A stretch of 64,000 bases of DNA from an uncultured Candidatus Binatia bacterium (GTDB lineage Bacteria > Desulfobacterota > Binatia > UBA9968 > CAXXLF01): positions 992,001 through 1,056,000 of the forward strand of contig OZ244621.1 in assembly GCA_965218425.1 (NCBI GenBank), read 5' to 3'. This document shows, piece after piece, positions 12,016-49,562 of this stretch. How positions within the stretch are numbered: position 1 is the first letter of the stretch; every line of letters starts with the position of its first letter. Below the pieces are notes generated by a model. The model saw nothing but the letters and a program-made list of their open reading frames with translations, did no database searches and was not told the origin of the DNA. The translations under genes and the position numbers were made by a program.

Positions 12016-12717
12016 ACTGCTATCGCGGGAGCTGCCGTCTCTTCGCGTTGACCCTGGGTTGAGGGGGCTTGCTTCGCTCCGCGGGACTCCCGCAGCGACC
12101 CATCGGGCATTCGCTCCTATGAACCTCCAAAGCTTCATGGCTCCTCGTGGAGCGAGCCTCCGGCCGCAGGCAATAAACCGGTGAATATCTGAAGCTGAAC
12201 GTTCGATGCCCACGGCCTTACGTCTCGCTCCCCAGCATCGCATTGCGGTTTTTGGGCCCAGGGGGCCTGCACCGAAGAGAGGGAGACGTCCGATACTGGT
12301 AGCTCTTGCCAATCTGGCATGTCAGATCAAATGACGGGGCCTCGAGGCACAGGCCCGTCGGCTCCCGCTGAGGGGCAGGCCCCCGAGCCCAGCAGTCCAC
12401 TCCCCCGCCAATATCGGCGGAGCGACCTTCCAAAGCTTACCTTCTCCTCGGAAAGCGAGTCCTCAGGCCGTGGGCAACAGGCTGGTGAATATCCAAGCTC
12501 TACGCTCGATGCCCACGCCCTTCATCCTCGCCCCCCTCGGAGCCAAGTGTGATATGGGTCAGACTATTGGGATATTTGACATCACCCGTCACGATCCACC
12601 GAACCCGGTCCCGAGCACATTGCCCCTCGGCAGCCTGAAGCGCCGGGGCGTAAGGGTGATTTTCGCGGTCCCGCCGAGGAACCGCTGAAGCGAAGGGACG
12701 GCAACTCCGGTAGCAGT
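12016..12717. repeat. Mosaic structured repeat with terminal inverted repeats (MITE/REP-cluster-like), copy 1
   Basis: TIRs 12027-12046 and 12690-12709 match at 17/20. 12161-12388 is the reverse complement homolog of 38712-38939. 12082-12155 is homologous to 39474-39530 (inverted) and 54224-54275 (direct). Confidence 0.8.
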
Positions 12718-37699: not shown

Positions 37700-38485
37700 C
37701 TATGACGGCATAAGCCCATTCTTTCTCAGAAAACCGCTCACGGCCTCATCGAACAGAGCTGGCTGCTCCAAGCAACAGGCATGCCCCGACCTTGGAATGG
37801 TGCGGTGCTCGGCCTTCTTTATCTTTTGACTCATTTCGATACTCCGCGGCCTGGCTCCGTCAAATTCGCCATTGATCACCAGCACGGGCATTTGAAGTTC
37901 TTCCAGACGAGGGGTCAGGTTCTTTCGCTCCAGGGCATTGAAGACCTCCCTCAAGGCCTGCGGTTTCAAGTGGGGATCCGTGTCCGTAAACAAACTGAGG
38001 GCGTATCCACCCAGCTTTGATTCCGCAAACTCCTCGCTAACAAGATTCTTGAGGTGTTCAATGTGGTACTTTTTGACTCCTTGATTCAGATACCCGTCCG
38101 TTCGAGTCTGATGCGGGCTCGGGCCACTGCTACACCCGACCATAATCAGCGCCTTGCAGAGATGGGGATGGTTCAATGCCATCTGGAGTACAAGGTTACC
38201 GCCCACACTGATCCCGCAGAGGATTGCCTCTTTGGCTTGCTCTTGACGGCAGACCCCCACGATGTCTTCCGCCATCTCAGCGACATTGGTTTCGGTGACG
38301 GGCTTGTCCGAACGCCCGTATCCTCGAATATCCACTGCGATGACTTTAAAAAACGTGGAGAACCGGGCAATCTGATATGTCCACAAGCGATGATCAAAAG
38401 GATTTGCATGGATGAGGACCATGGAAGAACCCTCCCCGGAGACCTCATAGTAGATCCGAATTCCATTGACTGAACAGTAGGGCAT
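37700..38485 (-). CDS. Alpha/beta hydrolase (enol-lactonase-like)
   Basis: DIRGYGRS, GISVGG, NGEFD and SGHAC motifs. Confidence 0.88.
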   Translation of the reverse strand: MPYCSVNGIRIYYEVSGEGSSMVLIHANPFDHRLWTYQIARFSTFFKVIAVDIRGYGRSDKPVTETNVAEMAEDIVGVCRQEQAKEAILCGISVGGNLVLQMALNHPHLCKALIMVGCSSGPSPHQTRTDGYLNQGVKKYHIEHLKNLVSEEFAESKLGGYALSLFTDTDPHLKPQALREVFNALERKNLTPRLEELQMPVLVINGEFDGARPRSIEMSQKIKKAEHRTIPRSGHACCLEQPALFDEAVSGFLRKNGLMPS

Positions 38486-38953
38486 AACTCCCTCCCAAAC
38501 ATTATATTAGCAATTCGTACCTAATAAACAGCCATAAATTATTCGAAGCCCCGTACCTTCGTCAAGGGAATCGACGCTTACGAAATCGTAAGACTCCGAA
38601 AGTTAAGACCTTCGGTCCTGACAGGAGAGCGAGCGTACTTAAACGGGAGATGTCATCCCTTCGCTTCAGTAGTCCTTCGTCGAGAACGCTCATTCACCCA
38701 TCGAGGTAGGACTCGGGGGCCTGCCCCTCAGCGGGAGCCGATGGGCCTGTGTATCGAGGCCCCTTCATTTGATCTGACATGCCGAAATGGCTTGGACCTC
38801 CAGCATTGGACGTCTCCCTTTCTTCGGTGCAAGCCCCCTGCGGCCCAAACCGGAAAAGCCACGAAGGGGAGTGAGATGTAAGGCCGTGGGCATCGAACGC
38901 GCAGTTTCAGATATCCACCGGCCTATTGCCCGCGGCCGGGATTCGACGGTGAG

Positions 38954-39452
38954 ACTTGTATGGATGGATGCCAAAGCTGAGTCCAAGACGTCCTATGAGG
39001 CAAGCTCATTCAGGCTTCTTGGTCCGCCATCCGCCAGGATGCACAGCTTAGAGGATTTTACCGGCCGGTTTACCAAAGGCACCCAGGGGAGCGAGCAGCA
39101 AGCAAAGCCATTGTGGCGGTAGCGCGCAAACCGACCACGAGGATCTATGCCGTTTTGAAACAACAGCGGCCTTACGTGGTGAGGGAAAAAGTTCCTTCGG
39201 CTCCTTTGACTAAAGAGGAGACTGTGCCCCAGAGAACGACTTGACGGCTGAGAGAACCGGGAGAGATTAACTCCTGAGGGTTCGGAGTGTGAGACAGGGA
39301 GCCCGGGGCATTGTACCTGAGAGAGGGGCGCATCTTAACGAAGTGTGACGGCCCATGAGCCGTGCCACGAATTGCGGCAAGTCTCTCTTCGCTCGGGGAG
39401 CTTAAAAACATACCGGGACTATTGGCTCCGTGCCTTGACATCCACATAGCAG
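38954..39452 (+). mobile_element. Internally deleted IS110/IS1111-type element (499 bp) with both ends retained
   Basis: AG core at 38952-53 and 39451-52; sub-terminal IRs ATGGATGCCAAAG and CCTTGACATCCAC (10/13); transposase C-terminus plus a ~200-nt non-coding right end. Confidence 0.8.
38999..39244 (+). pseudogene. IS110 transposase C-terminal fragment
   Basis: GKLIQASWSAIRQDAQLRGFYRPVYQRHPGERAASKAIVAVARKPTTRIYAVLKQQRPY...*, the typical KAIVAVARK...IYA tail of IS110 transposases. Confidence 0.88.
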
Positions 39453-39894
39453 CTCTGCCGAACCGAAGACTCTCTCCACGAGGAGCCCTGAAGCTTCAGA
39501 GATTCATACGAGAGCAGGCTCGGTGGGTTACCCACTGCTCCGTCCATTTTTCGCTCAGTAAGCCCCTTAGCTCAGGACCGATGCAACGGGAGCTGGGTGC
39601 CTGAGCGGAGGATTGGTTCAGAGGCCTTGGAAGACCATGCGAAGCTGAGAAAAGGCGGCATCGACTGTTAGAGCGCAGCGAGTTTCGATCTGCCCGAAGC
39701 GAGCAGCTAAGGCATCCCGCCCAGGGGCCGCTGAAGCGAAGGGATGGCAGCTCCGGTAAACTCACTCTCCACTCGCTGTCAGCAACACACTTTTCACCAT
39801 GCCACAAATGTCGGGATAGAGCCCCGATTATCTTGACATTCACACCTCATCCATGATGAACTCAATCAGTTTCCTGATGGAAAGGAACGATGCT

Positions 39895-40986
39895 ATGGGA
39901 ACAATCATTGACGCGGATACTCATGTTTCGGAATCGGAAGCCATGTGGTCGCTCCTGGAAAAGGAGGCCTACCCTCGACGTCCACTTCTCATGCGTGTTC
40001 CCAACGACACCCAATACAAAGACCGAGACGCGTTCTGGCTCATCGATGGCCAGATAGTTCCGAAACCGGCGGGCCAAGCCGGGAGTGTGCTCATTACTCC
40101 GGCGGCGGCCTCCAATCAATCTAACAGAACTGACATCACCGTCGGATCCAGAGAGCTGACGGACCCGCAAGGACGCATTAAGGACATGGATCGCCTCAAC
40201 GTGGATGTTCAGGTGACATACCCAACGTTGTTTCTCGTTTATCTGACAGATGACATTGCTTTGGAGATCGCTCTTTGCAGGGCCTACAACAGGTGGATGA
40301 GCGAGGCCTGTGCCAACGGTGGCGGTCGCCTTCGATGGGTGGCGATCCCGCCGCTACGAAGTGTGGAGGAATCCTTAAACGAGATCAGGTGGGCCAAGGA
40401 TCACGGCGCGGTGGGGCTTTTCTTTCGTGGATTGGAAAAGGACCGCAATCTGGATGACCCGTACTTTTTCCCCATTTACAAGGCGGCCATGGAGCTGGAT
40501 TTACCTATCTGCATCCATACGGGATCCGGCTCCCCCGTGTTGTCGAATCTGTTCAACCTTGAACGCCACTCAGCGTTTGCCTCTGGACGCATTCCTCCGA
40601 TCATCGCCTTCAGAAATCTCGTGGCGAACAAAATTCCTGAGCTGTTTCCGACCCTCAAGTTTGGCTTCATCGAGGCCTCCGCCGGTTGGGTTCCCTATCT
40701 GCTGCACGCGCTGCGCCGCCAGTTGCAACCGCGATGGGCTGAGCTATCAAACGGCGACTTCCTTAAACGATACAGATTCTATATAGCCTGCGAAGCCGAC
40801 GAGGACATTGGCTATCTCGCCAGGTACATCGGTGAGGACAATCTGATCATTGGCTCCGACTATGGCCACAGGGACCCTTCGGAGGAAAAAGAGCTGGTCA
40901 AAACCATGAAATCCCGTGAAGACATTCCTGCTTTTCTTACGGACAAAATTCTTTTCGATAATCCAAGAAGCTTTTACGGGTTATAG
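39895..40986 (+). CDS. Amidohydrolase_2 family protein
   Basis: IDADTH, ICIHTG, IEASAGW and GSDYGH motifs. Confidence 0.92.
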   Translation: MGTIIDADTHVSESEAMWSLLEKEAYPRRPLLMRVPNDTQYKDRDAFWLIDGQIVPKPAGQAGSVLITPAAASNQSNRTDITVGSRELTDPQGRIKDMDRLNVDVQVTYPTLFLVYLTDDIALEIALCRAYNRWMSEACANGGGRLRWVAIPPLRSVEESLNEIRWAKDHGAVGLFFRGLEKDRNLDDPYFFPIYKAAMELDLPICIHTGSGSPVLSNLFNLERHSAFASGRIPPIIAFRNLVANKIPELFPTLKFGFIEASAGWVPYLLHALRRQLQPRWAELSNGDFLKRYRFYIACEADEDIGYLARYIGEDNLIIGSDYGHRDPSEEKELVKTMKSREDIPAFLTDKILFDNPRSFYGL

Positions 40987-49206: not shown

Positions 49207-49417
49207 GCTGGCCTCCTTTCAAGAGTGCATCCCGAATCCGACAACCGATCCACAGAGAAAATCGACTGCCGCTATGTTAGTCCAAACCAAATACCAACAT
49301 CAAGGGGAAACCGGCTTTCTACGCTTCACCCCTACTTCCCTCACAATTCAACGTTCAAATTCTCGCCCTGCCGCATTAAGGACTCAGCGTTAGTAGCTCA
49401 TGGCTGACTCGTGCCAG

Positions 49418-49562
49418 GTCCCCTTCGCTCCAAGCCAGTAGTGCGACGAGGGGAGTGAAACGTCAGGCCGCAGGCATCGAACGTGTAGCTTCAAATATTC
49501 ACTGGTCTATTGCCCGCGGCAGGGCTTTTACGGTGACCTCAGCCGAACCGAGGCCCGCTCCC
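49418..49562. repeat. Partial mosaic repeat, copy 3, carrying the empty IS110 site
   Basis: GGGGAGTGAAACGT...GGCATCGAACG...TATTGCCCGCGGC...ACGGTGACCTCAGCCGAACCG is homologous to 38866-38953 joined to 39453-39478. Confidence 0.75.

Follow-up and report, generated by a model that had tools for sequence, protein, structure and literature searches.

A 499-bp probable relic of an IS1111-group insertion sequence with a retained guide-RNA region

The 499-bp element and its full-length relatives

A short mobile-element derivative lies in the spacer between two hydrolase genes of an uncultured Candidatus Binatia bacterium. The stretch of DNA that was analyzed, called the window here, spans 64,000 nucleotides (contig OZ244621.1, positions 992,001 to 1,056,000, assembly GCA_965218425.1) of a complete 4.46-Mb genome that is assembled as one contig (G000) and carries the element in a single copy. 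On the + strand, window positions 38954-39452 hold in succession the left end of an insertion sequence (IS) of the IS110 family, the tail of its transposase gene, a region predicted to encode a guide RNA, and the right end. The element, 499 bp in length, is very probably an internally deleted member of the IS1111 group of this family that has kept its guide-RNA region and is now an immobile relic.

The boundaries of the element, its AG cores and its junctions can be read directly in the sequence and are those given by the original prediction. An AG core flanks both ends (38952-38953 and 39451-39452). With a slash marking the point of insertion, the left junction at 38953/38954 reads ACGGTGAG/ACTTGTATGG, or in longer context ..GATTCGACGGTGAG/ACTTGTATGGATGG.., and the right junction at 39452/39453 reads CATAGCAG/CTCTGCCGAACCG, or ..CCACATAGCAG/CTCTGCCGAACCGAAG. 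There is no target-site duplication: an empty site has the AG core once, whereas the insert is flanked by it at either end.

The left end (38954-38991, +) begins with ACTTGTATG, an additional G and ATGGATGCC, and equals positions 1-37 of the closest full-length relative, L132, plus that inserted nucleotide. Within it lie a −10-like hexamer, TATGGA (38959-38964, +), and the left sub-terminal inverted repeat, TGGATGCCAAAGC (38965-38977, +), which a repeat search found to be complementary at 11 of 13 positions (85%) to its counterpart at 39432-39444. The latter opens the right end (39432-39452, +), which also contains a −35-like hexamer, TTGACA (39435-39440, +), and finishes with the tip CATAGC and the core AG (39451-39452). 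Sub-terminal inverted repeats had been predicted here, and they do exist, each displaced by one nucleotide from the coordinates first given. In the relatives these repeats share the family core TGGATGTC/GACATCCA, and their length of 13 nt falls within the range of 7-17 bp that is typical of the IS1111 group.

Joining the two ends would bring TTGACA and TATGGA to a distance of 17 nt, of which 12 nt derive from the right end and 5 nt from the left end, and this spacing of the putative junction promoter is as originally predicted. The joined ends of full-length relatives would give TTGACA-17-TATGAT. The left end of the 499-bp element has one extra G, placed after the tip and before the sub-terminal repeat (ACTTGTATG-G-ATGG), which changes the hexamer from TATGAT to TATGGA, so that its final T is lost.

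Between the ends, the transposase remnant (38999-39244, +) consists of 81 sense codons (38999-39241) and a TGA stop codon (39242-39244); an earlier count of 82 codons is correct if the stop is included. Only the C-terminal tail of an IS110-family transposase is encoded (GKLIQASWSAIRQD...AIVAVARK...KQQRPYVV...VPQRTT, then the stop), and reading through two TGA codons gives 72% identity to residues 291-385 of the transposase of a full-length relative. The remnant has no Pfam match, and aligns with positions 287-343 of NF033542 at 26.4 bits against a cut-off of 140. Because it lacks the DEDD/PF02371 feature, the element is classed as a derivative of an IS1111-group member and not as an autonomous member.

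Full-length relatives are present in a range of other genomes. A DNA search of 60 relatives returned matches in five, all from another family (f2) of the same order, and an order-wide search with the non-coding part found the element type in 20 of 90 genomes of f2, in none of the four genomes of the window's own family and in none of the 28 genomes of a third family (f3). A protein-seeded scan of named genome contigs added 22 loci, with titles that name Candidatus Binatia, ‘delta proteobacterium’, Nitrospira, Pyrinomonadaceae, Syntrophobacteraceae and Acidobacteriota assemblies, and a metagenome scan seeded with the 81-residue fragment yielded 18 further loci. Three unpublished genomes among the matches (G075, G106 and G090) were excluded from all counts.

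Complete relatives are 1418-1449 bp long, plus one of 1547 bp, and encode a transposase of 385 amino acids that matches PF01548 (47 bits), PF02371 (78 bits) and NF033542, ‘IS110 family RNA-guided transposase’ (214 bits against the cut-off of 140). The 1547-bp element (L054 and L117, two handles for one element) carries a 118-bp tandem duplication of right-end sequence that starts exactly after ..CATAGCAG and looks like a second right end joined at the core. In the relatives ~80-100 nt precede the transposase start codon. They begin with ACTTGTATGATGGATG (variants ACCTG.. and ACTTATATG..), have the left-end consensus A-C-T/C-T-G/A-T-A-T-G-A-T-G-G-A-T-G, and finish with CTTGACATCCACATAGCAG. AG is found on both sides in all but two of the 19 complete elements tallied. 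In L050 the last two bases are AA, and in L063 the left flank finishes with AAG. The same ends and AG core recur in relatives beyond those 19. Left end, right end and core are thus the same in full-length homologs as in the 499-bp element, and the original prediction passes the test that it set for itself, under which homologs with other ends or unrelated targets would have counted against it.

The resemblance extends over the whole element. Identity to full-length relatives ranges from 75 to 85.5%, with E values down to 1e-149, which is more than chance likeness. Alignment with the closest full-length relative, L132 (1430 bp), locates the missing segment: positions 1-41 of the 499-bp element match L132 positions 1-40 at 92.7% identity, and positions 44-499 match L132 positions 975-1430 at 85.5%. 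More precisely, positions 1-38 equal L132 positions 1-37 plus the extra G, and the element from position ~47 onward equals L132 positions 978-1430. CCT is present at both deletion breakpoints, and the ~930 bp lost between them comprise nearly the whole transposase gene.

In the element 208 nt separate the transposase stop (39244) from the right tip (39452), and the left end is ~38 nt. In members of the IS1111 group the right end encodes the RNA and the sub-terminal repeats are long, as stated in the portion of Durrant et al. (2024, PMC11208160) available to us, and the available portion of Siddiquee et al. (2024, PMC11187229) lists among the group's traits sub-terminal repeats, a left end that is short and an extended non-coding region 3′ of the gene. 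A long 3′ non-coding region, a short left end and sub-terminal inverted repeats together place the element in this group, and the original assignment to the IS110 family can be narrowed accordingly.

Target site and guide-RNA region

The element interrupts a copy of a ~110-nt hairpin repeat (..CGAGGGGAGCGAG..GGCCGTGGGCA-loop-TGCCCACGGCC..CTCGCTCCCCGAGG). The left part of the host copy (38835-38953, +) contains the 5′ arm and loop of the repeat, the left half of a nested insert (..TTCGACGGTG) and the core AG; the right part (39453-39500, +) contains the other half of this insert (CTCTGCCGAACCGAAG) together with the 3′ arm. In genome coordinates the host copy is G000:1030835-1030952. There are 52 BLAST matches to the repeat in the genome (42 by a repeat search), most of which end before the insertion point, and other copies in the window lie at 49409-49523 and 12160-12269. 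The repeat has no Rfam match and may be REP-like, MITE-like or an RNA. Many more copies of it occur in genomes of the sister genus and family (G001, G003 and G004). A second, different repeat is located in the same spacer (window 39519-39769), with many copies in G001 and G003 that are 80-90% identical over ~220 nt.

The insertion point lies at the center of a ~29-nt palindrome, CTCGACGGTGAG/CTCTGCCGGACCGA, which is nested between the inner and outer stems in only five of the ~52 copies, and the core occupies the loop of this small nested hairpin. The five are the filled copy, copy 3 of the window (core AC) and copies at G000 positions 858375, 1283210 and 1514532 (all AG). The original prediction held that the element targets the repeat family, a description that can mislead, since only this nested sub-family carries the site. 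The nested insert was also considered as the footprint of an IS, but it shows no likeness to either IS end.

An empty homologous site was predicted at 49530-49550, and is indeed present. Copy 3 (49409-49560, +) carries the nested insert and reads ACGGTGACCTCAGCCGAACCG at these positions, with the core AC and the right flank CTCAGCCG; it differs from the joined flanks of the element at two of 21 positions, one difference being AC for the AG core. Tabulating the cores gives AG in the single filled copy and in three of the four empty copies, and AC in the fourth. The three empty AG copies, all of them outside the window, are better examples of an empty site than copy 3. The full-length relatives do not share this repeat position. 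Instead, they occupy other palindromic repeats of the form ..CCTGAG/N3-5 GTCGAAGG, a motif whose strict form has no match in this genome.

The region downstream of the remnant (39233-39400, +) is predicted to form a scaffold like that of seekRNAs or bridge RNAs, with two internal loops around two hairpins. Alignment of 22 non-coding regions from the family gives a mean column identity of 78%, and RNAalifold predicts 35 base pairs that include the hairpins GAACCGGGAG..CUCC..GGUUC and ACGG..CCGU. A simple rule relates this region to the insertion site in the family: the 8 nt located 5′ of the sequence AGAACC are the reverse complement of the core G plus positions +1 to +7 of the right flank (register 0) or, alternatively, of right-flank positions +1 to +8 (register 1).

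This rule was assessed with 41 distinct guide/flank pairs representing 25 distinct guides; 12 right ends, most of them at the end of a contig, had no reachable guide and fall outside the tally. Matches of at least 7/8 were found in 20 pairs (15 in register 0 and 5 in register 1), and 10 pairs match at 8/8. The summed score of 253/328 compares with 181.4 (sd 6.7) for permuted flanks and was reached by none of 20000 permutations, although this figure overstates independence because kin share guides. The rule is also followed at unrelated targets (L130/L136, L146 and L147), where the guide GGGCTTGC accompanies G+CAAGCCC, ATACCGGC accompanies G+CCGGTAT and TTGGACAC accompanies G+TGTCCAA. Register 1 pairing was observed in L125, L126, L138, L085, L043 and the element in the window, and in this register it seems to be the GTCG/CGAC part, not the core, that anchors the duplex.

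Two further positions of the scaffold also track the DNA around the core. The 3′ side of the target loop follows the sequence of the left flank plus core in the sense direction when one base is bulged out, and scores 57/85 against 44.6 for permuted flanks, a value reached by 90 of 20000 permutations; among 17 relatives with a known left flank, nine match at 7-8/8. A donor guide, ATAGCAG in the relatives, equals the right-end tip plus core, and in L043 it covaries with the DNA, with ATAACAG found in the RNA and the right end alike. The sequence CAAGTCT that follows the donor guide was tried as a left-end guide and rejected, as it lies in a predicted closing stem and the ACCTG left ends show no compensating change.

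In the 499-bp element the 5′ target guide is CGGCTGAG (39245-39252, +), the reverse complement of right-flank positions +1 to +8 in register 1. It matches the element's own right flank, CTCTGCCG, at 7/8 and that of empty copy 3, CTCAGCCG, at 8/8. The genome-wide frequency of 8-mers that fit this guide is 4.8e-4 at 7/8 or better and 2.3e-5 for exact matches. The CGAC/GTCG pairing of the family is replaced here on both sides, with CGGC in the guide and GCCG in the target. The retained RNA region thus carries a guide that fits the insertion site, as the appeal to a bridge RNA in the original prediction implied, and an RNA transcribed from a longer ancestor could have directed this particular insertion. 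The 3′ target guide position, GAGTGTGAG (39285-39293, +), is likewise in the sense of the left flank and core, and the donor, or right-end, guide position (39371-39377, +) reads ATTGCGG against ATAGCAG in the relatives, with five of seven positions kept. Within a 401-genome sample of the phylum the guide motif was found in this genome only, a weak result given that the sample holds one genome of the carrier family. The guide CGGCTGAG is absent from all 18 metagenome loci, none of which is inserted in the nested-palindrome target of the 499-bp element.

Origin and mobility

The arrangement can be explained by two events. A full-length IS1111-group IS of ~1.43 kb, with a DEDD transposase and a 3′ guide RNA, would have inserted by RNA-guided recombination at the AG core in the center of a palindrome, TTCGACGGTG-AG/CTC(A/T)GCCGAAC, that itself lies within only a few of the ~110-nt hairpin repeats. 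A later internal deletion, presumably in place, would have removed ~930 bp and with them nearly the whole transposase gene, leaving the left end, 81 transposase codons, the guide-RNA region and the right end. The product would be an immobile relic now because the genome is without a matching transposase.

A six-frame search of the genome with the protein of a full-length relative found no cognate transposase. Its matches were the element's own fragment, a 39-residue N-terminal relic and two distant IS110-group copies (22% identity). The distant element is 1804 bp long, has other ends and shows 20.8% identity over 159 amino acids by BLASTP. Its two copies (G000 2784810-2786613 and 4378150-4379953) are 99.3% alike, with a 434-codon frame and a long 5′ non-coding region, and no other intact IS110-family transposase is encoded in this genome.

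The N-terminal relic is a 135-bp segment (G000:1736085-1736219) that corresponds to L132 positions 86-220 at 84.4% identity and codes for ~39 residues from the start of the transposase. It lies 705 kb from the 499-bp element, in a spacer beside a TetR-like gene, and covers a part of the IS that the element is missing. This second, independent relic indicates that elements of this IS type once lived and decayed in the lineage.

Several observations weigh against the account given above. The deletion in place is argued from copy number only, and a miniature that moved once with a helper since lost would look the same. The 5′ guide fits in register 1, which is used by only five of the 20 well-matched relatives, and scores only 1/8 in the commoner register 0. 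The 3′ guide matches the left flank ACGGTGAG at only 5/8, namely the invariant TGAG plus one base. Across the family, 13 of the 41 guide/flank pairs match at 5/8 or less, so the rule is not universal, although two of these are boundary artefacts (L077; L054/L117).

The evidence for the RNA itself is subject to similar reservations. None of the 35 predicted pairs is compensatory, because the stems are invariant, and the RNA structure therefore stands as a prediction. The single-sequence fold of 39233-39400 is no better than that of shuffled sequences (z = -0.17), and there was no Rfam match in the window at gathering scores, nor in 38800-39600 at E values up to 10. Finally, the scaffold of the 499-bp element carries four private changes at otherwise invariant columns, compared with 0-6 in the other sequences. 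It is no more visibly decayed than those of full-length relatives, and thus gives no sign that the RNA part is old or inactive.

Two other short members of the family have a different deletion junction. L043 (316 bp, G055:C204) and L096 (264 bp, G070:C63) come from two other genera and share one junction, at which the left end at position ~22 is joined to position ~1137, although they have different guides and occupy different sites. The shared junction indicates that they represent one lineage that has moved, independent of the 499-bp element. The guide of L096 matches its right flank at 8/8, and its assembly (G070) has only a fragment of the family transposase and no full-length copy. The junction motif of these 264- and 316-bp elements is absent from the 401-genome phylum sample, which is weak evidence in that the sample lacks both of the genomes that hold them.

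It could be proposed, rather doubtfully, that miniatures built of a left end, a guide RNA and a right end are ‘self-guided’ parasites which borrow a recombinase but carry a programmable address of their own, and that in the 499-bp element such a form has begun recently and independently. If this is true, the element could be moved once an L132-type recombinase enters the cell.

Mobilization in trans was put forward in the original prediction. It remains unlikely that the element is at present a working non-autonomous miniature with its own guide RNA, which a transposase supplied in trans could insert into further repeat copies. In favor of this view, the element retains its two ends with their sub-terminal repeats as well as the RNA scaffold, its right guide suits the insertion site, and a true miniature lineage exists in the same family (L043 and L096, with one junction, different guides and sites, and an 8/8 fit in L096). 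Moreover, a miniature inverted-repeat element tied to the IS110 family, MITEPpu9, has been published, as the available part of its description attests (PMC12288879). However, the complete 4.46-Mb genome has no cognate transposase and only a single copy of the element. Three nested sites with an AG core (guide fit of at least 6/8) and the four other genomic occurrences of the exact 12-mer TGAG+CTCAGCCG are all unfilled. In addition, the 1-nt insertion in the left end spoils the −10 hexamer of the junction promoter (TATGAT to TATGGA), and the donor guide differs from the right end at two of seven positions.

Further observations are relevant to this issue. Contigs of four sequencing runs from two studies (X1, X5, X6 and X7) were aligned to 38300-40100, and the filled form, identical in all four, is the only one seen across the two junctions. 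Neither the excision joint 38953-39453 nor the circle joint 39452-38954 was found in these contigs, which cannot show rare forms. The element may have been mobilized in trans in the past, but nothing in this genome favors such movement, past or present.

Slightly less likely again is that the element was already a miniature on arrival and made a single move, with a helper since lost or decayed, and so did not shrink in place. The second relic 705 kb away is in keeping with the former existence of a helper, and miniature relatives are present in other genomes. Against it, nothing separates such an arrival from deletion in place, and the breakpoint is unique to this copy, with no second copy in the genome that shares it, and differs from that of the 264- and 316-bp miniatures. 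The 81 retained transposase codons would be needless in a selected miniature and point to an accident of recent date more than to a form that has been propagated, and the phylum sample has no second occurrence of the guide motif.

That the RNA region is kept as a domesticated small RNA of the host and not as a decaying remnant is hardly credible: only four private changes at otherwise invariant scaffold columns and the identical filled form in the contigs of four runs from two studies would suit it, but no promoter-like site was found upstream of the region on the + strand, the fold is no better than shuffles, and the 255-bp syntenic spacer of the sister genome G001 has neither the repeat copy nor the element, and so offers no orthologous empty site.

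An internally deleted, immobile IS1111-group relic accounts best for these findings, and has little consequence for this genome, in which it is a dead insertion in a spacer. Of greater interest are two by-products of the analysis, the guide rule at the level of the family and the miniatures with a shared junction. The full-length relatives form an IS1111-type clade, so far uncharacterised, of Binatia-like bacteria and others from soil and groundwater, and this clade could be useful to work on bridge RNA and seekRNA recombinases. This clade supplies 25 natural guides, a readable rule (the 8 nt before AGAACC) and two pairing registers, together with natural minimal donor-plus-guide cassettes of 264-499 bp.

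Relation to known systems

RNA-guided targeting of repeats by the IS110 family is well known, and IS elements that target repetitive extragenic palindromes were reportedly described by Tobes and Pareja in 2006. As with those elements, insertion in the present case occurred at a fixed position and orientation in a palindromic repeat, but the palindrome that serves as target is small in this case and is found inside some copies only of a larger hairpin repeat.

The closest parallel to the full-length relatives is provided by the IS1111-group elements with seekRNAs, such as ISEc11, ISPa11, ISKpn4 and ISPst6 (Siddiquee et al. 2024, PMC11187229). In the part of that account available to us, these elements also have a 3′ non-coding region and sub-terminal repeats and make no target duplication. 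As in the family studied here, their RNAs place a top-strand match 5′ of a bottom-strand match, the two meeting at the core, and different elements choose different sites. The transposases of the tight IS1111 cluster are given there as 330-350 amino acids, compared with 385 in the relatives studied here, which may therefore belong to another branch. In other respects, too, the present case departs from what the available text describes: the enzyme has been lost, the guides were recognized from covariation alone rather than from purified RNA, and two registers one base apart were seen.

Similarities to the bridge RNA of IS621 (Durrant et al. 2024, PMC11208160) are also evident as far as the accessible portion of that report extends. 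Two stem-flanked loops read the target and the donor ends, and a 2-nt core is shared. In contrast to IS621, the RNA is located at the 3′ rather than the 5′ end, the core is AG rather than CT, and the system is known here from sequence alone. Furthermore, the 5′ side of the donor loop in this subclade is not clearly complementary to the left end.

Our examination of the literature on IS110 non-autonomous elements, bridge RNA and seekRNA/IS1111 found no description of miniature IS1111-type elements that carry their own target guide. Miniature derivatives tied to IS110-family elements are nevertheless already published, as in the case of MITEPpu9 and the small RNA ssr9 of ISPpu9 (Pares-Guillen et al. 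2025, PMC12288879). According to the part of that publication available to us, MITEPpu9 resembles the 499-bp element in being transposase-less, in having a small-RNA gene between IS-like ends and in its association with palindromic repeats. Eight copies of MITEPpu9 are reported there, together with a resident transposase and detected circles, and the RNA is not needed for transposition. The element in the window, in contrast to MITEPpu9 as described in those sections, is single-copy, orphaned and a plain deletion derivative.

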